From an uncultured delta proteobacterium (GTDB lineage Bacteria; Desulfobacterota; Binatia; UBA9968): 64,000 nt of DNA. Of the stretch, positions 4,968 through 46,638 are shown in pieces. The notes beneath the pieces were generated by a model. It was not told where the DNA came from. It searched no databases and saw only the letters and a program-made list of their open reading frames with translations. Made by a program: the position numbers and the translations under genes. The DNA lies in assembly GCA_963737905.1 (NCBI GenBank), contig CAVTUQ010000028.1, positions 160,001-224,000 on the forward strand, given 5' to 3'. The first letter of the stretch is position 1. The number at the start of each line of letters is the position of its first letter.

Positions 4968-5648
4968 TTAGCGTTCCTGAAATTCGAAATCCGCAATCCG
5001 AAATTCGCAATTGCTTAGCTCCTTAGCTCTCTTGCTCCGCTGCTCCCTGCTTAACTTGCTCCCTGCTCTCCTGTCCCCATACACCCCCCGTCGCTGGAAC
5101 AACAGAACGAAAGCTTTCGCGAGAATGTAGGCGTCCAATCGGAGTGACCAGTTGTCAACGTACCAGACGTCCATCCGAACCCGCTCATTCCAGGGAACCA
5201 GGTTTCTGCCATGGATCCACGCCCATCCGGCCATCCCTGGCCTGAAATCAAATCGCCTGCTTTCTGACGGTCCGCAGTACGCGGCTTCGCTCGGTACCCA
5301 GGGCCGCGGCCCGACGATGCTCATGTCACCCTTGAGGACATTGAGGAGCTGCGGCAGCTCGTCCAGAGTCCATTTGCGCAACCAGCGCCCGACTCGCGTG
5401 ATGCGATCATCGTTCTCGCTTACAATCAGCCCATTCCCGATGGACTCAGCTCCGATCACCATGGTGCGGAATTTGTAGCAGCGAAACCTTCGCCGGTTCC
5501 TCCCCACACGATCCTGCACGAACAGAACTGGCCCGCCGTCATCCAACTTGATCGCCAGCGAGATCAAAGCGATGAGCGGAGAGAGCAGCAGCAGCGCGCT
5601 TGCTGCGACAACGATATCGAAGAGACGCTTCACGGCGAGGCTGACCAT
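4968..5648 (-). CDS. Bacterial sugar transferase (priming phosphoglycosyltransferase, PglC/WcaJ C-terminal type)
   Basis: KRLFDIVVA, F.Q.RVG, YKFRTM, DELPQLLNVLKGDMSIVGPRP; last ~35 aa are read through heptamer repeats. Confidence 0.93.
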   Translation of the reverse strand: MVSLAVKRLFDIVVAASALLLLSPLIALISLAIKLDDGGPVLFVQDRVGRNRRRFRCYKFRTMVIGAESIGNGLIVSENDDRITRVGRWLRKWTLDELPQLLNVLKGDMSIVGPRPWVPSEAAYCGPSESRRFDFRPGMAGWAWIHGRNLVPWNERVRMDVWYVDNWSLRLDAYILAKAFVLLFQRRGVYGDRRAGSKLSREQRSKRAKELSNCEFRIADFEFQER

Positions 5649-5651
5649 TGG

Positions 5652-6374
5652 AATTTCGGATTTCGGATTTCGGATTGCGGATTTATAACAGCAAACATAG
5701 CCTATGAAGAATTTTGGATTGCGGAGGAGGTATTATCTCGATGACAGAAAGATAAGTTTGTGAACTTGCAATTCAAAAATTTAAAATACTGACGAGCTGT
5801 TGCGGTCGAATCAGAAATTCGACATACGAAATCCGAAATTCGAAATTTCCTCAGACCGGCTTTGGCTTGTTCGCTCGCGTCGATCTTCCTATAGCGATGA
5901 AGATTGACAGGAGTTCACCAGCTTCCTTCAGTAAAGTCGTCCGGGCTTCAGTAATACCAAGGGAGACCTCCTCCATTACTTCTAGCCAGTACTGGGTTTC
6001 TGCAATTTCTTTTTCGACGATCCCGATCTTGTGGACAAAATCTGCGCGAGATTGCGCGCGATTAGCTTCGCGATAGTTCGCCCCGACTGATGTTCCTGAT
6101 TTCAGTAATTGATAGCCCAAAACGTCCGAAGTTTTCTTCTTCGGTAGCTCTTCCACGAAAAGGATAACGCTGACGGCGAACTTTTTCGTCCGTCGCTCTA
6201 GCTCATGCTTGTCCATGAAAGTACATTTCGGATTTCGGAATTGTTCTGAGTCGGGGTTAGGAAATCAAGAAGCGACCAGACAATCGAAAACATTTAGGAG
6301 CGTCTCAACACTTTGGTACCGGGCGAGTCCGGACAAATTCGAAATCCGCAATCCGAAATTCGAAATCCGCAATC
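5652..6374. mobile_element. Four-helix-bundle cassette copy 1 bounded by AATYCGM heptamer inverted arms
   Basis: Whole ~720-bp unit, including non-coding flanks, recurs at 12910..13607; mobility is inferred from the duplication. Confidence 0.6.
5851..6216 (-). CDS. Four helix bundle protein (23S rRNA IVP / TIGR02436-type)
   Basis: RTKKFA...QLLKSGTSVGANYREANRAQSRADFVHK...KE..ET.YWLE. Confidence 0.92.
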   Translation of the reverse strand: MDKHELERRTKKFAVSVILFVEELPKKKTSDVLGYQLLKSGTSVGANYREANRAQSRADFVHKIGIVEKEIAETQYWLEVMEEVSLGITEARTTLLKEAGELLSIFIAIGRSTRANKPKPV

Positions 6375-6454
6375 GCCTTTGCTCTTAGCTTTCTTGCTCC
6401 CTGCTCCCAGCTCATCCTTTACACAAATCCTACCGCTTGTTATAAATACTCGGA

Positions 6455-29665: not shown

Positions 29666-29800
29666 GTTTCCTATACTCTGCACATCTAGAAACAACTTGG
29701 ACGTTACTACAGACCCGTGGGCGCAATCGCTATCGATAGTTGATATGTGCTCTTCTTCGATTTAATTGTCTTGGTAGCGGCAAATTACCCTGATCGTACA

Positions 29801-30542: not shown

Positions 30543-30619
30543 GGACTGAACTTAATCCTTAAGATTGTTTTTCATAAATCCCGAAGACAAGAAACATCTT
30601 TCGCCGAACTCCCTTGCTC

Positions 30620-31150: not shown

Positions 31151-31186
31151 AAGCTATCGCCTTAGCGGCAAAACTGGCGACTCACT

Positions 31187-31870
31187 TCATCGCTTCCACA
31201 CATAGCGAAAGTTACTCCAGTGGGGCTTGTCGTGGCCTGAGAGCATCGAATCCCGCGATACGTTGACGCTGGACCTATGAACTTCTGAGAACCCTGCTTC
31301 TATCAATCGTGTTTCCGCCGTCTCCCAGTCCCACGCGCTACGATGACGGTTAAATTTGTTGTCACGGAAACCGTAATCGATCATCTCAAGAGGCGTTCTT
31401 ACTGAAAGCGTCTGCATAGCATGATCAGGATATAGTTTGAAGATTTGCTGGCGCCTACTCTCATCCGGATCAAGAAAAATACGGAGAAAAACCTGAAGGT
31501 CCGGGACGACCATGCGAAAAACGCCCGCTGGCTTCAGGATGCGGTGACACTCACGAGCTAGTTTAAACACGTCTTCGTAGGAGAGGTGCTCTACCACGTG
31601 ATGTGCATAGATACCGGACCAAGTCTTGTCAGGGAATGGGAGAGGAAAACGCAGGTCAAGCCGTGCCTCAGCTTCTTCATTGAAAAAGAAGTCAGAATTA
31701 AGAAATCCTCCAATCTGCTCTGGCCGCTGCCCAATTGCAGATATCTCTTGCCGCCGGTGTCAAGCCAATTGGAGCTCAGAATCCTACCCTTGAAGGCGGT
31801 AAGCTCAAAACGCAAGGCATCCAATGAATCCAAAAGGTGAGGCTCAATCCAGTTTCGGGGGTGGAATCAT
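31187..31870 (-). CDS. Methyltransferase domain protein, frameshifted
   Basis: YLQLGSG; VEHL...ECHRILKPAGVFRMVVPD. Confidence 0.72.
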
Positions 31871-32506
31871 CGTGACTATGGGTACAGATTTAGTCGACCG
31901 CGCCTATTTCGCCCATCAAAAACGCATCCTCAGTGTTACTTGGAACATGTAGCGTGCGCGTCAATCCATTCAACCAACCTAGTTGCGGAGGCATCGAATC
32001 TACGTCATTGACGTTTACGACCATGATGTGACTTGCGGCAGGCATATAGTCCGATGGACACCTTTTTCCATGTATCATCCATCCGTTTCCCCAGATGGAT
32101 CTCGGAATCGGCGAAATTTCGTCTTAGAGCGCGCAGGGCAGGATGTTTCGGCACACCCTTTCGACATTCATTGCATCCAGGAAAACCTGAAAGTCTGACT
32201 TGGCCTGGCAAACGATCGACTGAAAGCAGAGAACTGCCAATGCTGGGACGCGATCCAGTTCTTGACAATGCTGGACTTTGAAGGCAACAATGTAAGTCAG
32301 CATGGACTCACGGAACGAACAGACTATATTGCAACCATTCTATTGATTTGGAAGTTTCTCATGTACGGCACCGACAAATCCAGTAAACAAAATCTTGACA
32401 CATTAGATGTTTTTCGGAGTCGAGAAACCATGCACGTTCTACAGCGGATGAGCAATCGCGGGTTACGCATCGGAGCGCAGGTCCGGCTCCAAAGCCTCTT
32501 GAAAAC

Positions 32507-33256
32507 TTAGCCGCAGTTGGTGGTCTTTTGCCAGCAGCCAGTCGGCCGGAATTCCCAAATGAACGGTCCAGGCCCGGTCAAATTGAGCGACTTCCACTTC
32601 AGGCGCTTCGTCTCTCGCAAGACCCACTGGTATCTCTCACGGTCGAAATCGTCAACAATCAGGTAACCGCCTGGTTTGATCTTCGGTATGGCATGCATAG
32701 CACATGATGACCGGCAGCGGCCGTCGACCTGAACCACATCAAAGTAATCGTCTGGGAAACGGTCGATGATGGCTGCATAATCCTTGAACGAAAGCCCTGC
32801 ATAGGCTTCTGCCGCCGAGGCATAGGTCGTCGGATCGCTAGGGCGCGGAACGCTCCCGTCGCGTCTTTCGGACGGTAAAACTATAAAAAGCTGCCATGAT
32901 GGATGCTGGAGGCTGCCCATAGAAACCTGAATATCTCGCGCCCAGTTGGGGTCGTGCTCGACCGAGACCAGGTTACGCACTCGACGGGCGAAAAAAAGCG
33001 TAGAGCCACCGACACCCCATTCAAAGACGCGCATGTCAGGAGCTAGAACACGGTTCAAAAAATCAATTCCTGCATACGTTATCCATGGCAACTCCTGCTC
33101 GGCGGGCGTGGTATACAAGCTGCGGTACCATTTCGGAAACGATCCGATCATCCTCGGCAACGACTGCCCCGCTCGCCCCTGGCAAGAAAGTTTAATGGCT
33201 TCCCTAAAATAATAATCAAGCCGAATGGCGAATTGCTTCATTGAAGCTAGACCCAT
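32507..33256 (-). CDS. SAM-methyltransferase-like protein
   Basis: PWITY..IDFL, VFEWGVGGSTLFF, SVEHD, FDVVQVDGRCR, KPGG; start uncertain. Confidence 0.72.
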   Translation of the reverse strand: MGLASMKQFAIRLDYYFREAIKLSCQGRAGQSLPRMIGSFPKWYRSLYTTPAEQELPWITYAGIDFLNRVLAPDMRVFEWGVGGSTLFFARRVRNLVSVEHDPNWARDIQVSMGSLQHPSWQLFIVLPSERRDGSVPRPSDPTTYASAAEAYAGLSFKDYAAIIDRFPDDYFDVVQVDGRCRSSCAMHAIPKIKPGGYLIVDDFDRERYQWVLRETKRLKWKSLNLTGPGPFIWEFRPTGCWQKTTNCG

Positions 33257-33281: not shown

Positions 33282-34637
33282 TTAGAGGCGAAAACTGTGT
33301 TTTGTGACAAAGACGCCCTGTCCCAACGGCGGCAATCGGCCGGTCCCAAAGAAATCTCCACTTTCAACTTCGAATGTTCCCGCATTCCGAATCCAATCGG
33401 CGATCGCTCCATTCACGGTAGCGTACAATGTAAGATGATAGCGGCCGGGTAAGAGTGGAAAGGCAGGGATTTTCACCGAGATCTCGCGTACCTCAGCTGA
33501 AACAAGTAGAAAGTCCCCTTGCGCGATGGCCGTATCTAATAACAACACCCGCTGGCCGATGTTATTGTCCACTCCGATGCTAACGTGGAAATTACGGAGA
33601 TCGCGAGCGTGCGGGTTGCTAAACTTTATCACTAAAGTGCCCGGTGCACCGCATACAAAGGCACCTAGCGGTTTGGCATCTTTGTTACGCAACTCAATAC
33701 CTATAAACCGAATTGCACCAGATCCCTGCCGATCCAATCGTTCCTCGATCTTCATGTCAACTAGGCTGGTGGATTTGTATTGATAATGATGAATCACTTC
33801 CGCAATGTCTCCCTGCGAAGCGACTCGACCGCTGGAAAGATGCAGCCCCGTGTGACATAGATTCTGCGCTGCTGCCATCTGGTGACTGACAAACAACACT
33901 GTGCGACCCCCTCGAGCGACCTCCGACATCTTGCCCAGGCATTTCTTTTGAAACTCAGCATCGCCCACAGCCAGGACTTCATCGACGATTAGAATTTCCG
34001 GCTCCAGGTGGGCGGCCACTGCAAACGCCAGCCGGACGTACATGCCGCTGGAATATCGCTTGACGGGCGTGTCAATGAATTTCTCCACTCCGGAAAAGTC
34101 CACGATCTCGTCGAATTTCTTCTGAACTTCGGCCCTCGTCATGCCGAGAATCGCGCCGTTCACGAAAATATTTTCGCGCCCGGTTAATTCCGGATGAAAG
34201 CCCGTTCCTACTTCCAGCAAGCTCGCCACCCGGCCACGGATACGCACGCGGCCTTCGGTCGGCTCCGTGATCCGGCTGAGAATCTTGAGCAGAGTGGTTT
34301 TGCCGGCGCCGTTGCGCCCGATGATGCCGAGTACCTCGCCCTGTTTCACCTCAAAATTCACCCCCCGGAGAGCCCAGAACTCCTCGCTAGCCAGAGGTCG
34401 GAGGTCAGAGGTCAGAGGTCGCAAACCAGAGGTCGGAGGCCGGAGGTCAGAGGTCGGAGCACCATTATCTGATCTCTGATGTCTGATCGCTGACGTCTGG
34501 CCAGAGAGCCAGCGTAGCGGTGCCGCCGCTTTTTCAGCGATGACATCGCGGAGCGCGACATACCGCTGATGATCCTGCTGGTGGCGGATCTTGTATTTCT
34601 TGCCGAGGTTTTCGACGCGTATGATGAAGTCAGACAT
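33282..34637 (-). CDS. wzt: Polysaccharide ABC transporter ATP-binding protein with C-terminal Wzt_C domain
   Basis: [29 protein letters not shown]; ~38-aa repeat-derived insert before EEFWAL. Confidence 0.93.
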
Positions 34638-34667
34638 GGCCAGAGGTCAGAAGTCAGACGTCGGAGG

Positions 34668-35090
34668 TCAGATGTCAGAGATCAGAAAAGGGCCGGGGTT
34701 CTTGATCATACTACCAAGCATTTTCCCAACCTCTTGAGACATCAACGCTAACTCACGATGTTGTTCCAGCGTGAGAAAGCCGCACTCGCGAGCAAAATCC
34801 AATGAAGAATCAGTTTCGCTGTTTTCACCGTCGCAGTCGGTTAACTTGCTAATGAAATGCGCTTCGTATCTTCTCTTTGCCCAGGCCTCTCTTAAATTCA
34901 AGCAGACCGACCGCGATGACCGCCGTATTTGACTGGTCAGCGCAAAACGCTCTTCATCTGGGAATTTCTTGCTAAGTGTGAATATTTTCATCGCCAGATC
35001 ATAGGCCTTTTTGTAAACTTCCAAGTCTTTGGCTGAATTAAGTCTCACACCTTCCCCGCTGATCTCGGACTTCTGACTGCTGGTCTTCAA
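34668..35090 (-). CDS. Four helix bundle protein (third, divergent subtype)
   Basis: KDLEVYKKA...FPDEERFALTSQIRRSSRSVCLNLREAWAKRRY; start uncertain. Confidence 0.92.
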   Translation of the reverse strand: MKTSSQKSEISGEGVRLNSAKDLEVYKKAYDLAMKIFTLSKKFPDEERFALTSQIRRSSRSVCLNLREAWAKRRYEAHFISKLTDCDGENSETDSSLDFARECGFLTLEQHRELALMSQEVGKMLGSMIKNPGPFLISDI

Positions 35091-35127
35091 ATAGCTGACT
35101 TCTGACCTCTGATCGCTGACCTCTGGT

Positions 35128-35958
35128 TCAAATGACGTCCGCGAAACTTCGTTCGACGCGGCGGAAATACCAGATCCCGAAAATACAGAGGCCAGATGTC
35201 AGAGCCACAGAGGTCAGAACACTCGGCCACCATAACGGGACTTCGCCGCGGAGGAGCGCCCAGCGGAAGCCGTCGATGACACCGACCATTGGGTTGAGGG
35301 AATAGAGCAGGCGCCAGTTAGCCGGGATGTTTTCGCTGGTGAAGCCAACAGGCGAAACATACAAGCCGAATTGAACGATGAATGGAATGACATAGCGGAA
35401 ATCGCGGTATGTCACGTTGAGCGCGCAGAGCCATAGGCCGGCGCCAAAGGCGGAACCGAATGCCAGAGCCACAAACAGCGGCAAGGTCACGATCCGCCAG
35501 TCGGGCAGAAAGCCGTACCAAACCATCATCGCCGCCATCAGCCCGAAGGTGATGAGAAAATCCACGAAGCTCGTGATGACGGACCCCGCCGGAACGATCA
35601 TGCGCGGAAAGTAAACTTTGGAAATCAAGTTCGCATTGCTGACGAGACTATTGCTCGACTCGCTCAGCGCGGTCGAGAAAAACTGCCACGGCAGCATCGC
35701 GGCAAATACCAGCAGCGGATACGGCACGGAACCGGGCGCTTCGAGCTTGGCGACTTTGTTAAAAACAATCGTGAAGACAATCATCGTGACGAACGGCCGG
35801 ATCAGCGCCCAGGCGATGCCGATCACAGTCTGTTTGTAACGCACGGTCACATCGCGCCAGGCGAGAATGTAGAACAGCTCGCGGTAGCGCCAGAGGTCGC
35901 GCCAGTAGTTCCGGAACGAGCGGCCGGGTTCGATTACGAGTTCGTCGGGCATTGGCAT
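35128..35958 (-). CDS. wzm: Polysaccharide ABC transporter permease
   Basis: RDVTVRYKQT.IG.AW, LISKVYFPR, YRDFRY, LNPMVGVIDGFR. Confidence 0.93.
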   Translation of the reverse strand: MPMPDELVIEPGRSFRNYWRDLWRYRELFYILAWRDVTVRYKQTVIGIAWALIRPFVTMIVFTIVFNKVAKLEAPGSVPYPLLVFAAMLPWQFFSTALSESSNSLVSNANLISKVYFPRMIVPAGSVITSFVDFLITFGLMAAMMVWYGFLPDWRIVTLPLFVALAFGSAFGAGLWLCALNVTYRDFRYVIPFIVQFGLYVSPVGFTSENIPANWRLLYSLNPMVGVIDGFRWALLRGEVPLWWPSVLTSVALTSGLCIFGIWYFRRVERSFADVI

Positions 35959-36228
35959 GCTAGCAAAGAGCAAAGGGGTAAGCGGTAAGAGCTAGGACAA
36001 TTTCGGATTGCGGATTGCGGATTTACCAAACGCTAAGTGCTAAGGGCGAAGCGGTAAGGGCAAAGAGCTAAGAGCATTTCGGATTTCGAATTGCGAATTT
36101 GAAGACTGCAAAGTGCTAAGCGGTAAGGGCTAAGTGTCAAGAAAACCGGCAAAGAGGTCTAGAATTTCGGAATTCGAATTGCGAATTTGCTGACTTCTGA
36201 TCTCTGACCTCTGGGATATTAGACACCC

Positions 36229-36447
36229 CTACTTAACTGCCTCAACCGGTAGGTTCTCAATACTTACATTAACAATGTCTGCCAAACTGAATCGCTGGCT
36301 CACATCCAGAACTTCTATGCCAATTACTTGACCGTTCGCACCGAAATCTACCACGACACCGTCTTCAATTTCTTTGGACTTCGCCACATGCGTCTCCGTG
36401 AAGTAAACGTAGATGGCGTCGGCCTCTTTGCTATATTCAATTTTCAT
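36229..36447 (-). CDS. DUF2283 family antitoxin-like protein
   Basis: MKIEYSKEADAIYV...VVDF...GQVIGIEVL. Confidence 0.85.
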   Translation of the reverse strand: MKIEYSKEADAIYVYFTETHVAKSKEIEDGVVVDFGANGQVIGIEVLDVSQRFSLADIVNVSIENLPVEAVK

Positions 36448-36614
36448 TGCCCCTCCAATCTACGGCTTATTGACGACACTGATAATGAGAACTTCCTCAC
36501 GGATAGCATGGAGCGTGGAGCTCGGAGCTAACTCAACCAGAGATCAGAAGTCGGCGGTCAGATGTCAGTAACTGCAAAGAGAAGAGAAAACTCCATTGCG
36601 GATTTGCTCGCTCT

Positions 36615-36804
36615 TTATAAATCGCGCCAAGCTTCATCCTCTTCCGGTCTAAGCCAGTCTCTGTTCAGTACTCCTTCACTCAAAATGGCCGTCTCCAATC
36701 TCTCTTTGGCATCCTGAGTTTTTAAGAAACGAACGAAGTCCTACCGGAAGATCCTCTATTTCCTGGATGAATAATTTTTTCGGTTGCATCTTCTTTGCGT
36801 CCAT
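36615..36804 (-). pseudogene. DUF2281-type antitoxin with internal deletion/frameshift
   Basis: IQEIEDLP / DFVRFLK...ETAILSE..L.RDWLRPEEDEAWRDL* in two frames. Confidence 0.65.
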
Positions 36805-36839
36805 TTTTAAACGCTGCGGGCAAAAAGTGGGCGCTGTCC

Positions 36840-37199
36840 CTAAATCCACGGGCCAAGAAATTCCAGCTGGTTTTGCATTTCCTCCATTGATTTCGCACCG
36901 ATTAATTTTAGAAGACCGCGCATCTGGTCTCCTACAGAATAACGTTGCTGCGGTGCGAGAATAATGCCCGCGTGTGATTTGCCCTCAGATAGATACTGCG
37001 TATGGAGCCGGCAGAAGTCGCCAACGTTAAAACTGTACAAGACGCGGCTGTACGTGGTCGCATACTCTAGATGCTCCTCATCTTTACGCTCGATCATGCG
37101 TGCTTCTAAAGACGAAACTACATCCACATTGCGAGCCCGCAAAGCTGTAATCAAGACATGGCGCATGGAATCCTCATCAAAGTACAAACGAATCGTCAT
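36840..37199 (-). CDS. DUF5615 PIN-like toxin
   Basis: IRLYFDED, DEEHL.YA, SFNVGDF, HAGII. Confidence 0.85.
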   Translation of the reverse strand: MTIRLYFDEDSMRHVLITALRARNVDVVSSLEARMIERKDEEHLEYATTYSRVLYSFNVGDFCRLHTQYLSEGKSHAGIILAPQQRYSVGDQMRGLLKLIGAKSMEEMQNQLEFLGPWI

Positions 37200-37492
37200 G
37201 AAGCCCTGCGGCTCAGGAAATGCTCCCGCTCCAGTCTTTCAACCTCCGCCTCTTCTGAAGCGATATCGGTTTCGATTTCTGCCCGGTTCGCATGATAGTA
37301 AGCCAACGCCGCATAGACTTGCGCTAATGATAAGTGAGGAATCTCCAGCGTAATCTCCTCTGGACTTAACCCCAGCTTGTACCACCCTACAATCCGACGC
37401 ACAGTCACACCTGTACCTGCAATACGTGGGCGTCCCCCACGAATCTCCGGCGTCCGAACAATCAACGTTCCAATGTCATTTGGTGTTGGCAT
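37196..37492 (-). CDS. DUF433 antitoxin
   Basis: GGRPRIAGTGVTV...G.SPEEI...PHLSLAQVYAALAYY; overlaps the toxin start. Confidence 0.88.
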   Translation of the reverse strand: MPTPNDIGTLIVRTPEIRGGRPRIAGTGVTVRRIVGWYKLGLSPEEITLEIPHLSLAQVYAALAYYHANRAEIETDIASEEAEVERLEREHFLSRRAS

Positions 37493-37865
37493 AGCTTTTA
37501 CTCCCATAACTTTACTCTCCGACGTACTAGGAATTTTAACACGTGTGGCGATCCCAATGCCAAAGGGGAAAGAGCGAAGCCAATTGCGGATTTCGGATTG
37601 CGAATTTCGAATTTGAAGACTGCTAAGGGCCAAGCGGTAAGCGCAAAGAGCATGAAAGCATGGAGCAGGGAGCCTGGAGCTAAGAGCAAAATATAACGCT
37701 AAGGGCGAAGGGCGAAGAGCATTTCCTATTGCGAATTTCGGATTGCGAATTTACCGAACGCAAAGAGCTAAGCGGTAAGCGCAAAGAGCTAAGGGGCAAG
37801 AGCAAGACATTTCGAATTGCGAAATGTTTTTCTGACTTCTGACGTCTGACCGCCGATCTCTGAAC

Positions 37866-38120
37866 TTACTCACCACGGGCATATTTTAGATCGTCCTCAA
37901 GCTCCTCCGGACCATAGTGGCGCGGGATGCCACGCTCTCCTAATACCTGACCAAATTCGTATTTCCCTATGCCGGCCAGCTCCCTAGCTTTACCAAACGA
38001 CAAAAGCCCACGGGCATATAACGAGATTGCCAACTCTTTTAACAGTTCCTGTGCCATGCGCTCTTCCGGCAACCGGATAGACTGGAGTACTGAATCCGGG
38101 ACGTGCAATTGCAAGCCCAT
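37866..38120 (-). CDS. UPF0175 family antitoxin
   Basis: LAISLY..GLLSFGKARELAG...F...L.ERGI...EELEDD. Confidence 0.85.
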   Translation of the reverse strand: MGLQLHVPDSVLQSIRLPEERMAQELLKELAISLYARGLLSFGKARELAGIGKYEFGQVLGERGIPRHYGPEELEDDLKYARGE

Positions 38121-38169
38121 CTTTTCTCCCTTTCTTTCTGTCTTTTTGCCACGGACTGCAAAAGGTTAA

Positions 38170-38373
38170 TTAACCGCCGCTTTCCTTCGGCGAGATTTCC
38201 GGGCCGGGTTCGTTTTCTAATCCCCGCACCGCCGCCCGGAATGATAATTCTGACCAGTCGATATCTTCCGCTCGAAGCTTCAGTGCCAGATGCTTCACAA
38301 ATTCTAGCACCTCTCGTCGCAACGGTTCCGGTAACGCCTTGACCTCCTTATAGATACGATCGGCCGTTTCCAT
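38170..38373 (-). CDS. DUF2281-type antitoxin
   Basis: LPEPLRREVLEFV..L. Confidence 0.7.
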   Translation of the reverse strand: METADRIYKEVKALPEPLRREVLEFVKHLALKLRAEDIDWSELSFRAAVRGLENEPGPEISPKESGG

Positions 38374-38375
38374 TC

Positions 38376-38630
38376 CTAGCCTCCGCGTCGCTGCTCCCGT
38401 ACGACGTCAGACATCTGGCCTCGAATCGTGGCTGGGCGCATGCGCAACTCTTCAAGTCGAAGCCCAGGTCCCGTGGTTTCATTTAAGAATTTCGCAAGCG
38501 GAGTTTCTCGCCGCTTCTTTTCAGTCAGAAATTCGATGAAATCCATCACTTCAGCGATCTGCTGTGGCTCGAGGGCGTTAATTCTTCCCAGGATGCTTTT
38601 TTCTGTTAAGTCTTTCGATTCGTGTTTCAT
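38376..38630 (-). CDS. DUF2281-type antitoxin
   Basis: L.PQQIAEVMDFIEFL. Confidence 0.7.
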   Translation of the reverse strand: MKHESKDLTEKSILGRINALEPQQIAEVMDFIEFLTEKKRRETPLAKFLNETTGPGLRLEELRMRPATIRGQMSDVVREQRRGG

Positions 38631-38794
38631 ATTATTGCCTGAACTCTGAAAATGGAAAGCTGAAAGCAGAAAGTTGAAATCTGATTTCTGTTTTCTACTT
38701 TTTGTTTTCCCAATTTTCCTGAATGTATGATTGGCAGGTTTGACGTAAAGCGAATTCTGCTGGGGACGTTTTCATCCAAGAGAAATGCTTTCAA
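38627..38794 (-). pseudogene. DUF5615 PIN-like toxin truncated after ~30 codons
   Basis: TTG start overlapping the DUF433 stop: MKAFLLDENVP..., then runs into a GAAAGNN heptamer hairpin. Confidence 0.65.
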
Positions 38795-39012
38795 ACCAAA
38801 TCCTGAAGCCTGAAATGATTTTTCATCAATTCAGCAGAGAACCGCAAGCACTCTAGGACATCTTCCTTTGAAAGCGATGGATACTCCTCCAGCACATCCT
38901 CTACGGTATCCCCTGCCGCCAAAAACTCCAGAACCGTGCGCGCCGTTATTCGCGTACCTTCAATCACGGGCTGTCCGTTGCAGATGTCTGGATCGATAAC
39001 GATTCGTTTCAT
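38791..39012 (-). CDS. DUF433 antitoxin
   Basis: RIVIDPDICNGQPVIEGTRI...G.T.EDVLEEYPSL. Confidence 0.88.
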   Translation of the reverse strand: MKRIVIDPDICNGQPVIEGTRITARTVLEFLAAGDTVEDVLEEYPSLSKEDVLECLRFSAELMKNHFRLQDLV

Positions 39013-39340
39013 AGCGCTATGATAACCGCCGACGCTGCAAAAACAAGAGCCACCAAGAGCCGTCAGCCAGAGATCAGAAGTCAGAAGTCGGAGATCAGAA
39101 TCTCGCTAAGCGGCAAGCGCTAAGGGCGAAGCGCAGAGATCGGAATTCAGAAATCAGAGGGTCAGCCAGCTATAAACCAGAGATCAGCGATCAGAGATCA
39201 GAAGTCGGCAAATTCGAAATTCGCAATTCGAAATTCGCAATCCGCATTTTCTTAGCTCGATGCTCCTCGCTCCCTGCTCCCTGCTCCATGCTCTTACCCC
39301 TTACCCCTTACCGCATTGCCCTTTGCTTCGCGCTTCGCGC

Positions 39341-42300
39341 TCAGCTCCCCACCAGGCGGCTGCGGAGAGCGGCTAGGGCTTCGCGCGCTTCGCGGTGGGA
39401 CGGATAGAGCTGGAGAACACGCTCGTATTCCCGGGTCGCATCGCGGAGCTCTCCCACGCGAACGTAGGCATTGGCCAGGCGGAGGCGGGTTGTCAGATCG
39501 GCGGGCTCCTGCGACAGGATGGCCTGCCACAGCTCGATGGCGTGGAAAAACTTTTCGTTTTCAAACAGACGCTGGGCGAACCGCGCTTTGTACTCGCCAT
39601 TGCGCCGGTCAAGCTCGATCGCCTGCTTGTAGGCGTTGAAGGCGGCTTGCCAGGCGCCGGCGCCGTCCAGGGCTACCGCGAGTTGGAAATACGCTCCTGC
39701 GTCTGCTGAGTTCTCTTTCACCAATGCCTCCCATATGGGAATGGCCAGGGCAAATTGACCGCGCTTGGTGTAATAGCGGGCCAAAGCGAAGTTGATGCGG
39801 TAGGCTCGTGACACGGGCGTCGAGGAGTCAGCTTGGCCAAGTTCTTTTTGGACGAGCTTGACGAAAAGACGGCGGTGAGGCGGAAGCCCGTCGGAGTCCG
39901 GAGCCGGTGCTTTGGCAACGGCAGCCGCTCCATCGCCCGATTGTTTGGCCAGCAGGAGCGCGGTCTGAAAATTCACGAGGGCGCCGCTGTTCTCTCCCAT
40001 CGAGGAAAGTACTTCGGCGATGGCCAGACGAATCTCCGGATTCTCCGGGTCTAATCCGATCGTACTCTCCAGCTCCGAGAGCGCCTCGGGGAGTTTTCTA
40101 GCCCGGATCAGGGCGTTGGCATAGAGGCGACGGTAAATCGGTTTTTCCCCGGGTGAGGCGAGTGCGAGCGCCTTCTGATAGCTTTCGTCCGCCTGCAGCC
40201 GGAGTCCTTTCTTATCCAGGAGAGTCGCGAGGTAAAGACGATCAACCGAAGTGTTGGGGACCAGCGCCTGGAGATCTTCACGTTCGCTAGTCACGGCCAG
40301 GGCCCGGTCGAGAAGCTCAGGGAGCAGTTCCGGATTGAGAGCGACGGCGTTACGCACCGCGGCGAGAGCGGTTGCGCGCAGTGGCGTGGCGGGCGGAGGA
40401 AGACGCGCCTGAGAAAAGGCAAACAGCGCAAGCACCCGGTGGCGGGCCGGATTGGCGGGATCGAGGCTCACGGCGCGGTTGAAGTGAGTCAGGGCAAGGC
40501 GGCGCGTTTCGACGGCGGCTTCTGCCTGACCTGCCGACTGGGCTTGAATGAGGGCGCGGGTTCCGAGCAGCCAGGCCAAGCGCTCGTGCAGCGCGGCCTC
40601 ATAGGGCGCATCGTTCAGAGCACGCCGATAGTCATGCTCGGCTTGATCGAGCAGCGCCATAGCCACTTTGGTTCTTACCTCTTGAGTCCTAAGTATCGTA
40701 GCGTCGGGGCCGACCGCCCGGTTCCATGCCCGGCTCGCTTGCTCCTCGAGCTTGCTGGCGCGGAGGCGCAACGCTGCCGGATGTCCCGGAGAAATTGAAA
40801 TGACCCGTCCAAGCAGCTCCAAAGCTCGGCGTTCGTTCTCGAGGCGCTGAACTAATGAAGTTGTCATTGTGGGAGCGCTGGCTTGGGATTCCATGAAGGC
40901 GACCGCCGACTGAAACCTGTTCTCCGCCAACGGCGGACTCACGATAGAAAATACCGCGACGAGAGCCAGCCCGGCAACGATAACGCCGGCCGACACCTGA
41001 CGAAAACGTCCCGCAATCGGGTAGTGACGTACGGTGACGAGAGGTTGTGTTATGTTGCGGAAAAAACGGTTGTGGAGAGCGACTGTGGCAATGGCCAAAA
41101 GCGTAGCGAGGAGAATTCCATTGGCGGGAATGCGTAAGGAGAAATCGAGAAAGCTATGGAAGAAAACGGCAACCACTCCGCCTAATGCCCCGATGGCGAT
41201 GCCAACGTTGTACGGGTCCCGGCGATAAATATCCTCAATGTCGGCTTGACGATAAAAACAATGACCTCGACCCAAGAGGTGAGCGCCAATGAGATCTCGT
41301 CCAACACGCCACAAGGCAACTAAAAGGATCAGGCCTCCGACGAGACCGGTTTCAATCCAAAACTGGAGATGGTCGTTATGGGCATGAGTGAAGTGAACGG
41401 ATCCCGGCGTAAGCTCGATGGGCTGAAAACGAGGGAAGAGATCGCCATAACTCCCAAGGCCCGTTCCAAACAGGGGAGCAATGCGTAACATCGGGAGGCT
41501 CGCCCAGTACTGGGTGATTCTAGACTGGAGGCCCGTGAAGGCCAGGCCGAATCGCTCGAGGATAGGGTCGAGACCGATCCAGGCCGCATAGGTCAAGGTC
41601 AAGAGGACCAAGGCGGCGAGTAAAAGATGACTGGGACGAGCCGCCTGGCGGACCAAAAGAATTCCGACCAGCACAACTAAGGATAGAATGAGACTCACCA
41701 CCCCGGCTCTGGAGAGCGTGAAAACCAGCGCCACGGCCATGATGGTGATAGCGAATAACAGAAGCAGCTCTTGCCAGACCCTGTGGGGAAAGCGATGCGG
41801 CGTGAATTTTTTAACGGCGACTGCTGACTCCTCATCCGTTATCCAGTAGTCGCGCAGGGAGAGAGTCGTCGTCGAAGCCGAATGGCGCCTTCTCTGCCGG
41901 CGGAGAAGCTTGGTGGAAAGCAAGAAGCCGAGAGCGAGAGGAATCAGCATTGCGAGCCAGGCGGCAAAGTGGTCCGGGTTTACAAAGGTCCCGGTCACTC
42001 TTCCTGCATAACTGAGCTTTTTCGAGCCGAAAACCCCATAACCCCCGCCCAGGTAGTCCAGGAGACCGTAAAAAGCTAAAAGGCTTCCCATGACAAGCAG
42101 AAACCGAACGAGGCGATCGATTTGCAACCGCTCGCGAAACTGATTGACGACCAGGAAGTAAACCGCGGCGTAGGTAAGGAAAAGTCCCACGGCATGGCGA
42201 GTGGAGGCGGGCGCCAGGCTACCGGAGAAAAATATCGATGGTAATTGCGCTTCGGCGGAAGGCGACAGGGCCCAGTTCCGCAATGCGTTGTTTCCAAGAG

Positions 42301-42535
42301 CGAGCTGGAGAAACAGGACACCGACAAATAGGAGGAAAGGAACGTTCAGTGGGGTGCGAACGATTACCAGCTCTCCTTCAGCGATCATTTTGACAACCCA
42401 GGTCAAAACCGCGAAGAGAGCCAGCAGCTCGACAATCGCCAGCGGCCAGCCCTCCACCGAGCCATAGGGGAGGGGAGCGAACAGCAACAGAGCGTATAGC
42501 ACGCCGGTGACGGTCAGGTCAGCGATCCGACTCAT
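39341..42535 (-). CDS. O-antigen ligase family (Wzy_C) membrane protein fused to a long TPR region
   Basis: RVTGTFVNPDH, TLSRAG, PLFGTGLGSY, HAHND; C-terminal TPR-like repeats. Confidence 0.85.
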   Translation of the reverse strand: MSRIADLTVTGVLYALLLFAPLPYGSVEGWPLAIVELLALFAVLTWVVKMIAEGELVIVRTPLNVPFLLFVGVLFLQLALGNNALRNWALSPSAEAQLPSIFFSGSLAPASTRHAVGLFLTYAAVYFLVVNQFRERLQIDRLVRFLLVMGSLLAFYGLLDYLGGGYGVFGSKKLSYAGRVTGTFVNPDHFAAWLAMLIPLALGFLLSTKLLRRQRRRHSASTTTLSLRDYWITDEESAVAVKKFTPHRFPHRVWQELLLLFAITIMAVALVFTLSRAGVVSLILSLVVLVGILLVRQAARPSHLLLAALVLLTLTYAAWIGLDPILERFGLAFTGLQSRITQYWASLPMLRIAPLFGTGLGSYGDLFPRFQPIELTPGSVHFTHAHNDHLQFWIETGLVGGLILLVALWRVGRDLIGAHLLGRGHCFYRQADIEDIYRRDPYNVGIAIGALGGVVAVFFHSFLDFSLRIPANGILLATLLAIATVALHNRFFRNITQPLVTVRHYPIAGRFRQVSAGVIVAGLALVAVFSIVSPPLAENRFQSAVAFMESQASAPTMTTSLVQRLENERRALELLGRVISISPGHPAALRLRASKLEEQASRAWNRAVGPDATILRTQEVRTKVAMALLDQAEHDYRRALNDAPYEAALHERLAWLLGTRALIQAQSAGQAEAAVETRRLALTHFNRAVSLDPANPARHRVLALFAFSQARLPPPATPLRATALAAVRNAVALNPELLPELLDRALAVTSEREDLQALVPNTSVDRLYLATLLDKKGLRLQADESYQKALALASPGEKPIYRRLYANALIRARKLPEALSELESTIGLDPENPEIRLAIAEVLSSMGENSGALVNFQTALLLAKQSGDGAAAVAKAPAPDSDGLPPHRRLFVKLVQKELGQADSSTPVSRAYRINFALARYYTKRGQFALAIPIWEALVKENSADAGAYFQLAVALDGAGAWQAAFNAYKQAIELDRRNGEYKARFAQRLFENEKFFHAIELWQAILSQEPADLTTRLRLANAYVRVGELRDATREYERVLQLYPSHREAREALAALRSRLVGS

Positions 42536-42708
42536 AAAACTTTAAGCAGGGAAGCTTGGAGCATGGAGCCACAGATAGCATGGAGCTTGGAGCAGGGAGC
42601 ATGGAGCTAAGACACTCAAAGAGCATGGAGCATGGAGCTAAGACATAACGCCAAAGAAGCAGGGAGCTTAGAGCCACAGATAGCCGGGCTAGCGCTGTAG
42701 CAGCGGAG

Positions 42709-43074
42709 CTAGGATTTTAGAGTACGGCGAAAGGCTAAAAGCATTCTGCTTTCCTCTTCCAGTTCCGATAGTAACTTCCGGACCGTTTCAGACGGTAAAT
42801 AATTGTCTTTAGACAAAATCATCAGGATATTCGCTACCTCGAAAACTGACCGCCGGGACATATTCAGGAAGTTTGCGAAATCTGTATCAGATGCACTTCC
42901 CGATCCCTCAGCTATATTATTCGTAATACTTAGGGTTGCGCCACGTAATTGTTCAGCAAATCGGAATAATCTCCTCTCTTCGAGATTTTCCGCCAATCTG
43001 AATAGCTCAGCACTAATAGCAGCGCCTCGTTTCCAAATCTCTAACTCCTGAAATCGAAATTGTGTTTCACTCAT
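42709..43074 (-). CDS. Four helix bundle protein (fourth gene, third subtype)
   Basis: FRFQELEIWK...QLRGATLSITNNIAEGSG...F..FL..SRRS..E. Confidence 0.92.
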   Translation of the reverse strand: MSETQFRFQELEIWKRGAAISAELFRLAENLEERRLFRFAEQLRGATLSITNNIAEGSGSASDTDFANFLNMSRRSVFEVANILMILSKDNYLPSETVRKLLSELEEESRMLLAFRRTLKS

Positions 43075-43166
43075 CTCGTGCGTTCGCTTCCGCTCCCTCC
43101 GGCTCTCGCTCCTTAGCTCCATGCTCCATGCTTCTTGCTCCCACGCTCCCTGCTCGCTTAGCGGCA

Positions 43167-43895
43167 TTATCCCCCGCCATTTCCCCGGCCGTAGTGATAT
43201 CCGCCGTAGTACTGGTAAAAGTATCGATAGTAGTAGCCGTCACGGCGGGGGTCTACCTGGCTCAGAAGAACTCCGATCATCTTGCCCTGGACAGCTTCAA
43301 TTTGCTCGACCGCCCGCCGCAATAGCTCGCGCGGCGCGCCCCCGGATTTGAGCACCAGGATGACGCCATCGCTCAATGCCGCCAGCGCTGCAGTGTCAGC
43401 CACGGACATAATCGGCGCCGAATCGAAGAGCAAGGTGTCGAACTTGCCGGCGAGAGTATCGACAAACTCGCGCATCCGATTGGAGCCGAGAAGCTCCCAG
43501 GGATTGGGCGGGAGCGGACCACTTGGCACCAGGTAAAGATTCGGGGTCGATGTTGCTACCACTACTTGATCGACACTTTTCGCTTCGGCGAGCGCGACAG
43601 TCAGACCGATGCCATTGGATACACCGAAAAGGTCGTGCAGGCTCGGCTGGCGAAGATCGGAGTCGATCAGGCAGACCCTTCCTCCCGCCTGGGCCATGGC
43701 CAACCCCAGGTTGGCAACCGTGGTGGTCTTCCCCTCGCCCGGAGTGGCAGAGGTGATGAGAAGCTTGCGGTAACCATCGTCGAGGTTGGAAAACTGGAGG
43801 TTTGTCCGCAGGGTACGGTAGGCCTCGGCGGCGACCGATTTGGGATCCGTTTCGAGAATGAGACTAAGCGGAGGGGGCGGGGGTTTCTTCAGCAT
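43167..43895 (-). CDS. CpsD/CapB family bacterial tyrosine kinase
   Basis: AEAYRTLRTNL, GEGKTT, DSDLR.P, DSAP, C-terminal Tyr cluster YYYRYFYQYY. Confidence 0.93.
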   Translation of the reverse strand: MLKKPPPPPLSLILETDPKSVAAEAYRTLRTNLQFSNLDDGYRKLLITSATPGEGKTTTVANLGLAMAQAGGRVCLIDSDLRQPSLHDLFGVSNGIGLTVALAEAKSVDQVVVATSTPNLYLVPSGPLPPNPWELLGSNRMREFVDTLAGKFDTLLFDSAPIMSVADTAALAALSDGVILVLKSGGAPRELLRRAVEQIEAVQGKMIGVLLSQVDPRRDGYYYRYFYQYYGGYHYGRGNGGG

Positions 43896-44081: not shown

Positions 44082-45458
44082 CTATCGTTTTGCTTCGAAA
44101 ATTGGCACCACGCCAATCACCGGGAACCCCAAGTAGCTCTGCACTTCTTGAGGTGTTCGAATGGTATTGTCCAGACGCTCCAGAAACAATGCCACACCGA
44201 TCCCCGCCAGCAGGCCCAGGATAATGGCGATGCCTATCTCGCGGGATTTTTGCGGTTTGATCGGGAACGCCGGCACCTGGGCCTCTTCCACGACCCGGAG
44301 ATTGTTGGTTTCCAGCGCCCCCGAGACGCCCATCTCCTTCAAACGGTTCAGCACCGTCTCTTGCATTTGCTGGTTGGAATTGACCTCGCGCTCGAGCCCC
44401 TGATAATCGATCTCTTTTTCATAGATCTTTTGCGCCTCTTGCCTGAGCTGATCGACGTTTTGCAAAAGGGCGTTTTCGCGCGCCCTGGCCACACGCAGTT
44501 CGGTATTAACGGCCTGGAGCATGGTCTGGATCTCGGCTTCGAGCTTTTTCTGGACCTCCTGCATCTGCGCCCGCAATTCAATAATCCTTGGGTGCTTGGG
44601 TCCGAGGCTCTCGAGGGCCCTGGACACCTCGATCCTCAAGTCGGCGGCCTGGGCTTTGAGCTTCTGGATCATGGGATTATCGGCGACGATGAAAATGGTC
44701 TGGGCGCCGACCGGGTCCTTGGCGATGGCCTGAAGCTCTTTGAGCTTGGCTTCCACGGCCAAGCGTTGGGCCTGAGCATCCAGGTAGGCGGTGTTGACAC
44801 TCATGATCTTGCCGGTCGTGATCTCCCGTTGCTCCTTGAGCCCGACGATTCCCGCCTTGACCCGATAGTTTTGCAGGGCCATGGAGGAATCGCGTACTTT
44901 GGTACTCAGCCCGGTCATCTGCTCGGAAAGCCACGCCAAAGCCTCGCGGGCGTTCTTCATTTTCATATCCAGGTTGTTTCGCGTATAGGCGCGCGCGATG
45001 CCAGTGGCCACGTCGGCCGCCACAGCCGGATCACGGTGCTCGAATTTGATATCCACGAGGCTGGTTTCCTTTACGGGCAACACCATGACCGACCTTAAAA
45101 GATCTGCGACGGGATCCTTGGCCTCGGCAAGCTCAGGGAGTCGCTTTGTCAGATTGAGATTCTCGATCGCCTTTTCGATGACCGGCCGGCTCTTGATCAG
45201 CTCATACTGGGTCAAATAGTACTGGCTGTATTGGCTGCCAGTGGGATTGACTTCCTGAATATTGATGACCTTGGGGGCTTCGGGTGAGATCAAGACCCGG
45301 GCACTGGCGCGGTAAATTGGCGTCTGGAGAAAGGCTCGGATGATCCCGGTCGCGGCGACGATGAGGAACAGGCTGATAATCGTCCAGCGGCGCTTATGGA
45401 AAAGCTGCAGATAGGTGCGGAGAAAATTCTGATCTTCGACAGGCGGCGGTAAAGGCAT
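44082..45458 (-). CDS. Polysaccharide co-polymerase / chain-length determinant (GumC, Wzc transmembrane part)
   Basis: Two TM segments, PIYRASA, coiled-coil periplasmic region, GPKHP, P.KP, DNTIRTP. Confidence 0.9.
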   Translation of the reverse strand: MPLPPPVEDQNFLRTYLQLFHKRRWTIISLFLIVAATGIIRAFLQTPIYRASARVLISPEAPKVINIQEVNPTGSQYSQYYLTQYELIKSRPVIEKAIENLNLTKRLPELAEAKDPVADLLRSVMVLPVKETSLVDIKFEHRDPAVAADVATGIARAYTRNNLDMKMKNAREALAWLSEQMTGLSTKVRDSSMALQNYRVKAGIVGLKEQREITTGKIMSVNTAYLDAQAQRLAVEAKLKELQAIAKDPVGAQTIFIVADNPMIQKLKAQAADLRIEVSRALESLGPKHPRIIELRAQMQEVQKKLEAEIQTMLQAVNTELRVARARENALLQNVDQLRQEAQKIYEKEIDYQGLEREVNSNQQMQETVLNRLKEMGVSGALETNNLRVVEEAQVPAFPIKPQKSREIGIAIILGLLAGIGVALFLERLDNTIRTPQEVQSYLGFPVIGVVPIFEAKR

Positions 45459-45643: not shown

Positions 45644-46489
45644 TCAAAAGAAGCTCTCGGGGACAACGATGACGTCGTTCTCCCTGAGACGGATCGCCTT
45701 GTCCCGGCGACCCTGTTTGATGATCTCCGTCATATCGACCTGGATGACTTCTTCCCCCTTGGGCGTGGTCCGAATAATCCTCGTCCGGCCCGGCGCTGCG
45801 ATATTGGTAAACCCGCCTGCCAACGTGATGCCCTCGAGGATCGTGGTCTCCTGGTCGAGCTTATAGGCTCCCGGGCTCTTCACCTCGCCCAGGACAAAAA
45901 AGCCCTGGGCCTTGGGAATGAGAATGGTATCGCCGCTCTGCAGGGGTATATTTTCCTCCGCCCCTGCCTGGATCTTGGCGATGTCGTAGTGCTGGATATT
46001 GTTTTCGCGGGTAGCCTGCTGCTGCCCGGGCGCGGTTTTGTTTTGCGGGCGCACAAGAATGACCTGGCTACCGGCCAACTTGGACGGGCCACCGGCCTGA
46101 GACAGGACCTCCCAAAGTGTCAAGGGTCCCGTGAGAGCGTAGGTGCCCGGCTTCTCCGCCTCACCCAAAACGAAGACTTTCTTTGCCAGATACTCGGCCA
46201 CAGTGACGCGTACCTGGGGATTGACCAGGTAGTCCTTGTCTAAACGCTCGCGCAGGCGCTGGGCGATTTCTGTGGTCGTGAGATCTTCCACCTTGACTCT
46301 TCCGATTAGCGGAAAGTCGATGAAGCCATCACCGGATACTGAATACCGCTGAGAGAGATCCGCCTGCCCCCAAATGGCGACATCAAGCACATCGCGGGGG
46401 CCGACCCGATACTCCTGAGCCAGGGCCGGACATGAAAAGGCGAGGCACAGGAGCAAAAAAACAATTATTGATTTCCGACTCACCGGCAT
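45644..46489 (-). CDS. wza: Polysaccharide export protein with SLBB domains
   Basis: YRVGPRDVL, GFIDFPLIG, VLGE..KPG.Y twice, AGGF, DVIVVPESFF. Confidence 0.9.
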   Translation of the reverse strand: MPVSRKSIIVFLLLCLAFSCPALAQEYRVGPRDVLDVAIWGQADLSQRYSVSGDGFIDFPLIGRVKVEDLTTTEIAQRLRERLDKDYLVNPQVRVTVAEYLAKKVFVLGEAEKPGTYALTGPLTLWEVLSQAGGPSKLAGSQVILVRPQNKTAPGQQQATRENNIQHYDIAKIQAGAEENIPLQSGDTILIPKAQGFFVLGEVKSPGAYKLDQETTILEGITLAGGFTNIAAPGRTRIIRTTPKGEEVIQVDMTEIIKQGRRDKAIRLRENDVIVVPESFF

Positions 46490-46638
46490 CACTGTCTGTT
46501 CCTTTCCTGGGTCATGTTGATGCAAATCGAAACTCGAAAGTGGTGAAGACAACTCGGAGAACTCACCGCTGAGGCGCGGAGGGCGCGGAGAAAATAAACT
46601 AGCAGACCTAGTATCAGACTAGTCAAGATCACTCAGGC

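Follow-up and report, generated by a model that had tools for sequence, protein, structure and literature searches.

We analysed a window of 64,000 nucleotides (nt) from an uncultured delta proteobacterium (Desulfobacterota; Binatia; UBA9968; GenBank assembly GCA_963737905.1, contig CAVTUQ010000028.1, positions 160,001 to 224,000, forward strand), in which four genes of the PF05635 four-helix-bundle family lie between tandem arrays of heptanucleotides. The window is that whole stretch, and positions are counted from its first letter. An earlier note, made from the sequence alone, had proposed that each protein subtype is wrapped in its own heptamer family: the MDKHELERR genes (5851 and 13013) in AATYCGM arms, the KDLEVYKKA gene (34668) in TCAGAGG-family arms only, and the FRFQELEIWK gene (42709) in GAGCNNG-family arms only. 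All three sets of arrays, here called A, C and B, were found at these genes, and each gene is adjoined by its own family alone. The two arms of a gene are, in addition, reverse complements of one another, a point absent from that note. The resulting units of arm, open reading frame (ORF) and arm, which we refer to as cassettes, are laid out as follows.

35064..35125, minus strand: 5′ arm of the C cassette, tandem CAGAGGT-type heptamers on the gene strand; adjoins the wzm stop codon (35128)
34668..35048, minus strand: C cassette gene, KDLEVYKKA type, PF05635/TIGR02436, 126 aa, GTG start
34637..34687, minus strand: C cassette, 3′ arm, CTGACCT-type when read along the gene; shares the final 20 nt of the ORF and reaches as far as the wzt ATG (34637)
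43090..43160, minus strand: 5′ arm of the B cassette, of GGAGCAT type in gene orientation; plus-strand GCTCCNT array at 43114-43155
42709..43074, minus strand: B cassette gene, FRFQELEIWK type, PF05635/TIGR02436, 121 aa
42545..42643, minus strand: 3′ arm of the B cassette, in gene orientation complementary to the 5′ arm; GGAGCAT-type plus-strand array at 42551-42640; inverted-match z = 12.1
5647..6375, minus strand: A cassette copy 1, all arrays of the AATYCGM family; in plus-strand order, outer array 5647-5685, arm (AATYCGM) 5809-5849, ORF 5851-6216, arm (KCGRATT) 6224-6239, outer array 6334-6375
5851-6216, minus strand: ORF of A copy 1, MDKHELERR type, 121 aa
12906..13607, minus strand: A cassette copy 2, near-identical duplicate of copy 1; ORF 13013-13447, arms 13040-13080 and 13455-13470, outer array 13574-13607

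In a Pfam profile scan all four ORFs exceeded the 33.8-bit cut-off of PF05635, with scores of 61.7 bits for 5851-6216, 56.4 bits for 13013-13591 (domain at residues 56-152), 105.1 bits for 34668-35090, which also matched bAvd (PF22296) at 48.5 bits, and 92.2 bits for 42709-43167, all on the minus strand. The three types scored 97.7, 90.3 and 81.3 bits with TIGR02436 against a cut-off of 24, and there were matches, at the level of sequence only, to PDB entries 2rld (E = 6e-10) and 2gsc (E = 3e-9). Only PF05635 and bAvd domains were detected in these proteins; there was no nuclease or recombinase domain and no Y1 transposase domain of the kind found in RAYTs, the transposases associated with repetitive extragenic palindromes (REPs). 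As the earlier note had said, the proteins are mutually divergent (18-25% identity among types) and only three subtypes are available. The two MDKHELERR copies are a single duplicated cassette of ~700 bp, comprising ORF, inner arms, spacers and outer arrays, whose copies lie 7.2 kb apart (5675-6375 and 12906-13606), so the four genes amount to three independent cases. No target-site duplication of the kind that marks MITE-like elements was readable at the borders of this duplicated cassette, which are themselves arrays.

Arms and reading frames are closely interlocked. In A copy 2 the stop codon has been lost at the homologous position and the frame runs 23 codons on into the arm; the mechanical ORF call of the 42709 gene (152 aa) runs through the 5′ arm, giving a false, array-coded N-terminal extension; and the conserved C-terminus of the KDLEVYKKA protein, FLISD[LRIV]-stop, is coded by the first three heptamers of its 3′ arm. 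Both A copies are located directly upstream, in gene orientation, of the start codon belonging to the next gene. When the minus-strand RNA of 34600-35160 was folded in silico, the arms were predicted to pair with each other round the ORF, with a minimum free energy of -199.8 kcal/mol (z = -4.9).

Heptamer arrays are not confined to the cassettes. Our own scan found 81 period-7 arrays between 600 and 49595 and none beyond, and Tandem Repeats Finder returned 151 rows. A few families account for the arrays, namely AATYCGM (A), GGAGCNN (B), CAGAGGT (C), CTTACCC (D), AAGAGCA (E) and CGTGAGG (F). Every one of them occurs in either orientation and also away from any PF05635 gene; D, E and F have no gene in the window. 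As a control, we asked how often any gene is wrapped by an array and its complement of the same family (X+..X-). This was the case for 4/4 PF05635 genes and for 4/30 other genes, all four of the latter with family A, the commonest. Ordinary window genes tend to have X- on one flank and X+ on the opposite one, which fits intergenic gaps that hold X+..X- hairpins, some of them empty and some filled by a PF05635 ORF.

To see how the arms behave in relatives, we turned to the KDLEVYKKA type. A search with the 34668 protein gave at least 8000 candidates, those sharing most words with it, all with E ≤ 1e-3, and the best 120 were 77-94% identical. One genome scan matched at least 605 stretches, 519 of which were confirmed; its best 80 matches correspond to 78 loci (69-87% identity), not including the window's own genome. 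A profile search of all stop-to-stop ORFs in the 78 loci and the window (1.10 Mb) recovered 101 PF05635 ORFs, of which 82 fall in the main clade and 19 in other clades; 81 main-clade genes have at least 100 nt on both flanks. A CAGAGGT-type array lies upstream of 71 of these 81 genes and a complement array downstream of 70, so that 62 have both C arms and 79 have at least one. The two exceptions are L060, with a CAGGGGA variant, and L074, with weak arms. None of the 81 was adjoined by an array of at least 21 nt from families A, B, E, H, F, K, J or I. By comparison, a C array occurred in 109/5531 160-nt windows of the same loci (2%). C arms were found in each of the 14 named phyla in the set, and many loci contain no further array over stretches of up to 20 kb (for example L006, L009, L010, L011, L019, L020, L037, L044, L048, L073 and L077), from which we conclude that the arms travel with the gene. 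On the main-clade tree phylum changes 32 times (minimum 13, shuffled mean 46); this would fit repeated transfer, although so short a protein resolves such a tree poorly.

The other clades have arms of their own. Relatives of the MDK type carry A arms in L006, L066 and L072 and in a fragment in L002, and L037, a distant one, has them too; in L042 the relative of the FRFQ type carries B arms, and a sister of that type in L028 carries E arms. The L028 gene bears on the earlier note's prediction that paralogs for the orphan families would exist elsewhere: for one of them, E, a cognate gene was found in another genome. A clade marked by MTFEDLEGWQ has GGAGAGC-type arms, and single genes have ACACCGA, AACGCNN, GAGGATT or GTTTCAG arms. 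Inverted flank similarity (z ≥ 4) was detected for 17/19 other-clade genes. We also collected 20 plasmid loci, mostly cyanobacterial, from two tblastn searches (a third, with the FRFQ protein, matched 8 records). Inverted similar flanks, at the same threshold, were found in 17/20 and tandem 7-8-mers on both flanks in 13/20, the units varying by locus; related proteins tend to have related motifs (L084/L086, L085/L088, L092/L093/L097). On a tree of the 101 proteins, with 90 genes labelled by a template rule, arm family changes 8 times, close to the minimum of 7, whereas 300 shuffles gave a minimum of 13 and a mean of 14.8. Heptamer family is thus far from random with respect to protein clade, which is how the earlier note had framed the decisive comparison; because kin share labels, the count of 8 measures non-randomness and not co-evolution.

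Array-coded extensions in database proteins give a further, weak indication that would agree with these arm assignments. The samples were small (7, 16 and 3 proteins with N-terminal extensions, and 20 with C-terminal ones in the MDK set). Among the 16 N-terminally extended FRFQ homologues, 7 extensions were B+-coded, 2 E+-coded, 1 B- and 1 L-, and 5 belonged to no family; none was coded by C or A. As a separate observation, an Ignavibacteriales PF05635 gene at L061 4126-5000 lies between direct copies of a ~130-nt repeat (direct-match z = 72.7) in place of heptamer arrays.

Empty hairpins of the same families recur within and outside the window. Inverted array pairs with short loops are common in both, arrays in the outside loci that lie far from any PF05635 gene are often empty X+..X- hairpins, and the commonest far arrays in loci with a C gene are empty C-family hairpins (82/287). 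One example in the window lies inside a gene next to the C cassette.

34384..34499, minus strand: empty C-type hairpin, a C array then its complement, in frame inside wzt (33282-34637)

This hairpin codes TSDLRPL-type repeats in the N-terminal linker of Wzt, where they add ~35 residues relative to homologues. The wzt homologue in L054 has a short C-coded stretch at the same linker site; in L026 this linker is likewise longer than in L054, and its DNA reads as arrays of the GGAGAGC type, to which the arms of the adjacent cassette also belong. In Pyrinomonadaceae (L041 7423-9027, L043 528-709 and L030 3728-3772) a further family, AAAGTCC/GGACTTT, forms empty inverted hairpins, and no PF05635 gene with AAAGTCC/GGACTTT arms was seen in our data.

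We then asked what keeps the C motif constant. Main-clade pairs have a mean amino-acid identity of 0.72, and identity falls to 0.40 when third positions are compared and to 0.32 for the four-fold sites of identical residues; since the four-fold sites are saturated, the lineages are old at the DNA level. Over this span the C unit stays C-A/G-G-A-G/A-G/A-T, a logo ascertained within two mismatches of the consensus, for which reason 79/81 is the unbiased statement of motif retention. The arms of 79 loci align over a mean of 43 nt with 2720/3412 positions complementary, and their duplex energy is -88.5 kcal/mol, against a value of -59.3 kcal/mol when the arms are shuffled. The unit spectra of the upstream and downstream arms agree better within a locus (0.759) than between loci (0.741), and 0/2000 shuffles attained the observed value. 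Pairing alone would permit compensatory drift, and the motif has been kept despite saturation. It therefore seems, on comparative grounds, to be held by something beyond pairing, and its retention points to a sequence-specific partner.

The closest counterpart of the cassettes lies in ribosomal RNA. On the Azospirillum lipoferum 4B plasmid AZO_p2 (L091), a replicon that carries a full rRNA operon, a PF05635 ORF at 2893-3240 is situated inside the large-subunit rRNA gene at 1684-4882 (RF02541, 2692.8 bits). Its arms, CAGAGGA CGGATGA CAGAGGA CGGAGGA, pair with a complementary downstream run (fold z = -9.1). This insert is a classical 23S intervening sequence (IVS) and has the same build as the window cassettes. 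In Coxiella the terminal inverted repeats of the IVS are reported to form a 28-bp stem, within which RNase III cleaves, and tandem GACAGAT heptamers, strain-variable in copy number, stand upstream of its S23p ORF (PMC4990558). The window cassettes and the rRNA IVSs thus have in common the ORF family, inverted repeats at both termini whose pairing makes the stem that closes the loop with the ORF, arms with tandem heptamers and, as the operon setting of the window cassettes suggests, transcription as part of a host RNA. They differ in that the window host is an mRNA operon and not helix 45 of rRNA, in that the window arms are longer arrays, and in that there are many lineages, each with its own heptamer, and empty hairpins scattered through the same genome. 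Cleavage by RNase III has been shown for rRNA IVSs only, and would apply to the window cassettes by analogy. In the window Rfam gave 0 matches at gathering thresholds, so no rRNA was detected there, and the cassettes sit between protein-coding genes (wzm/wzt and wzc-kinase/wzy). On this basis we regard it as very probable that the window genes are IVS-type cassettes lodged in mRNA operons rather than in rRNA.

A second point of comparison is Avd, the accessory protein of diversity-generating retroelements (DGRs). In a study of the DGR ribonucleoprotein, all five protomers of pentameric Avd contact an 11-bp RNA stem-loop, and the same residues of each protomer read flipped-out bases (10.1101/2023.10.23.563531). 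The window proteins, by homology, would be related four-helix-bundle pentamers. Unlike a DGR, the window has no reverse transcriptase or template repeat, the NF033474 equivalog model for Avd is not reached, and the ligand would be a repetitive duplex in place of one short stem-loop.

These comparisons suggest a mechanism, which is the best overall explanation that we can offer and to which we would give about an even chance as a whole: an IVS-type stem-loop cassette that acts at the RNA level and whose arms are bound by its own protein. The cassette runs from a 5′ arm of tandem heptamers through a short spacer with a ribosome-binding site to the ORF and a 3′ arm of complementary heptamers. Placed between co-oriented genes of a host operon, it would be transcribed by read-through, and in the transcript the arms would pair over ~40 nt at ~80% complementarity, closing a ~450-nt loop with the ORF inside. 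RNase III may then cut the arm duplex and take the cassette out of the transcript, a step that seems to us evenly balanced and is modelled on the processing of rRNA IVSs. The encoded homopentamer would bind the repetitive arm duplex, as Avd binds its RNA stem-loop, and this would be the most likely reason for the tight motif; that the protein reads its own arms, again by analogy, we rate at somewhat less than even. Arm and ORF are inherited, and would be moved between phyla, as a single unit, giving each protein lineage its own heptamer because the two go together, and arms can occasionally be exchanged. As the cassette is inherited as a unit, shared descent alone yields most of the association; cassette descent with occasional arm exchange thus explains most of the link between arm and clade. 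Observation covers the layout of the cassette, its conservation, the link of arm to clade with its exceptions, the operon setting and the rRNA counterpart; read-through, arm pairing in the transcript, cutting by RNase III and binding of the arms by the protein are inferred. A bolder version is, in our judgement, unlikely: that PF05635 pentamers are sequence-specific readers of tandem-heptamer duplexes, each lineage matched to its own repeat, and that gene and arms form a self-addressed cassette which can settle wherever a spacer is transcribed, be it in an operon, in a cas or defence locus or in an rRNA helix, and would seed empty hairpins of its family. If true, it would connect three puzzles of long standing: rRNA IVSs, the 'S23p' proteins and the tandem heptamer repeats spread patchily over cyanobacteria and further phyla.

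Several results weigh against recognition of arms by the protein, against a strict code or against action as RNA. The one-to-one match of protein and repeat suggested in the earlier note does not hold: the L094 (Dolichospermum) and L096 (Nostoc punctiforme) proteins are 76% identical (89/117 residues), and the former has GTAATTC/GGAATTT arms and the latter GTCGGAG arms. GTTTCAG (H) arms are common to two unrelated clades (L014, L068). C-like arms occur in the main clade, at the Azospirillum 23S IVS protein (29% identical) and at L096 in the MDK superclade, and B-like arms are found in Nostoc, in a subclade that belongs to the C superclade and whose protein is 57% identical to the C type. Arrays are direct, not inverted, in L061_9179, L080, L086 and L098, and there are none in L089. 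At distances of more than 200 nt from PF05635 genes there are 64 arrays in the window and 287 in the outside loci. Many of the 78 loci are syntenic within families, such as Pyrinomonadaceae, and are therefore not independent insertions. The Coxiella S23p ORF is apparently unexpressed and decaying, yet the IVS persists (PMC4990558). Finally, no strand signal of RNA pairing emerged from either of two comparisons: sense and antisense duplex energies did not differ (42/79 loci favour sense, p = 0.19), and G.U-type mismatches were not in excess of A.C-type mismatches (195 vs 208, p = 0.55). Action at the DNA level, with the arrays as terminal inverted repeats, therefore has to be considered alongside action as RNA.

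The alternative that survives best is that descent and structure are sufficient: the arms are the stem of a selfish, IVS-like cassette, and the heptamer is kept by ancestry, slippage and arm-to-arm correction, with no protein recognition and no code. It accounts naturally for the arm swap between L094 and L096, for motif families shared by unrelated clades, for the many arrays distant from any PF05635 gene, and for an IVS that outlasts its ORF in Coxiella; the related motifs of related proteins noted above would be expected from gradual co-divergence. It is harder to reconcile with the retention of CAGAGGT in 79/81 genes of 14 phyla across saturated four-fold sites, where pairing alone permits drift, and with the strong constraint on the protein (0.72 identity across phyla), which implies a conserved partner. 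The binding of an RNA stem-loop by its relative Avd also argues against it (10.1101/2023.10.23.563531). We consider this alternative a serious one, with a probability appreciably short of even.

Recognition of the arms by the encoded protein could also serve a DNA system. The REP and REPIN families offer the model for one, in which the RAYT gene encodes a Y1 transposase with a known catalytic motif and stands between inverted short repeats that are also dispersed as intergenic hairpins, each gene lineage having its own repeat family. The window and the outside loci likewise show a gene between inverted copies of a dispersed repeat. They differ from REP/RAYT systems in that PF05635 has no catalytic motif and in that the window repeats are tandem heptamer arrays, not single palindromes. 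Under such a scheme the arrays would be terminal repeats and the protein would contribute to the spread or upkeep, around the genome, of empty hairpins from its family, which is why the three commonest families of the window would have resident genes. In its favour are the abundance of empty X+..X- hairpins of A, B and C in the window, each family with its gene, the in-frame hairpin inside wzt, the fixed polarity of the arms (CAGAGGT on the 5′ side in 71/81 genes), the mismatches without RNA-strand bias, and the share of C hairpins among the far arrays of C-gene loci. The scheme is nonetheless improbable. Neither protein nor window has a nuclease, transposase or recombinase domain (the domain scan of 63 window ORFs yielded no reverse transcriptase (RVT), transposase or integrase), many genomes have the cassette and no other array in up to 20 kb, D, E and F lack a gene in the window, and no target-site duplication can be read at the duplicated cassette.

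Two remaining alternatives can be dealt with briefly. That arrays simply fill almost every intergenic gap, so that any small gene would be flanked, has the 81 window arrays and the same-family wraps of 4/30 ordinary genes to recommend it; we reject it as highly improbable, since it is refuted by the same arms in 79/81 relatives against a background of 109/5531, often as the sole arrays in a locus, and inverted flanks in 17/20 plasmid loci also speak against it. That the genes encode Avd subunits of a DGR, which the bAvd match of the 34668 protein (48.5 bits) might suggest, is the least probable reading and was rejected, as this protein scores 42.3 bits with NF033474 against a cut-off of 80, the other two do not match that model, and no reverse transcriptase was found among the 63 ORFs.

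Returning to the IVS-type cassette, several of its components are already known: IVSs with S23p ORFs and their inverted termini, heptamers in one IVS (that of Coxiella), and the binding of an RNA stem by Avd. In the literature searched, which did not cover subscription journals, we found no paper that links non-rRNA four-helix-bundle or S23p genes to flanking heptamer arrays; nor did we find there non-rRNA PF05635 genes described as IVS-type cassettes with tandem-heptamer arms, arm families that track protein lineages across phyla, or empty hairpins of the same families littering some genomes. PF05635 is a very large family, as the number of candidates from a search with one subtype indicates, and we know of no function for it outside DGRs. 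To our knowledge the origin and spread of rRNA IVSs have also lacked an explanation for decades, and the tandem heptamer repeats that several phyla possess are likewise unexplained. One cassette build, of lineage-specific heptamer arms round a four-helix-bundle ORF, that recurs in at least 14 phyla and in both operons and 23S rRNA links all three puzzles and makes the question testable by simple binding and RNA-end experiments. There are consequences for annotation as well: the arms cause false N- and C-terminal ORF extensions and in-frame repeat peptides in host genes, and they probably cause assembly breaks.

Other tandem heptamers are known between genes. The short tandemly repeated repetitive (STRR) sequences of cyanobacteria resemble the window arrays in being tandem 7-nt intergenic units, patchy over phyla and with no known mechanism of spread; they are mostly direct repeats upstream of genes, whereas the window arrays form inverted pairs, some of which enclose a PF05635 gene. 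Both the likeness and the difference extend to the TAACTGA intergenic repeats of Beggiatoaceae, cyanobacteria and Bacteroidetes, and the passages of that paper located by word search contain no link to four-helix-bundle genes (PMC4679880).

With respect to host context, neighbours of the PF05635 genes are on the same strand in 143/162 cases, compared with 523/693 adjacent ORF pairs in general, and both neighbours are on the same strand in 56/69. We compared 146 neighbours with the window proteins, of which 38 matched, and scanned 77 of the 108 unmatched ones with Pfam, a scan that excluded the minus-strand rows and part of the syntenic ones from Pyrinomonadaceae. The neighbours annotated point to no single host context. 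Polysaccharide genes are common, and hosts also include IF-2, ClpB, hydrogenase, LigB/SDR and acetohydroxyacid synthase (AHAS) operons. The wzm-wzt junction holds a PF05635 cassette in the window and in L026 (11279-11815), L042 (18235-18684), L054 (1206-1580) and L058 (7451-7822); because these cassettes come from different protein clades and have different arms, the junction suggests itself as a recurrent landing site.

On cyanobacterial plasmids the gene order cas6-[PF05635 gene]-cas4 was observed. The cassettes of L083 (Anabaena sp. 90 pANA02), L086, L089 and L099 (Pseudanabaena galeata plasmids) lie in CRISPR-cas or defence-like operons. Their positions in the former are between cas6 and cas4, after cas2 or before cas1; in the latter they follow helicase genes or separate DUF1156 from Swt1-HEPN genes. 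The legend of a figure on CRISPR-associated genes explains '23S rRNA IVP' as one of its abbreviated domain labels (PMC10910872).

In the window, the cassettes belong to a polysaccharide synthesis and export locus that occupies ~3.4-49.6 kb and lies nearly all on the minus strand. Many glycosyltransferases and sugar-nucleotide enzymes are also present in it. Its principal export and assembly genes are the following.

33282-34637, minus strand: wzt, ABC ATPase
35128-35973, minus strand: wzm, permease
39341-42535: wzy-like/TPR gene
43167-43895: wzc-like kinase
44082-45458: wzz
45644-46552: wza

Between wzm and the wzy-like gene (35973-39341) is a run of small toxin-antitoxin-like genes on the minus strand, namely DUF2283, DUF5615 with DUF433, UPF0175, two DUF2281 and a further DUF433. 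Composite heptamer arrays lie between these genes, which are without the same-family X+..X- wrap of the PF05635 genes. Elsewhere in the locus an asparagine-synthase-like gene (19003-21157) is broken into several ORFs with heptamer arrays between or inside the pieces, and a carbamoyltransferase (11083-12905) is broken into two overlapping ORFs; both could be due to array insertions or to frameshifts. Heptamer arrays are almost lacking in the lower-GC glycosyltransferase block at 21000-33000, and there are none past 49.6 kb (50000-64000), so the array-rich zone covers just part of the polysaccharide locus.

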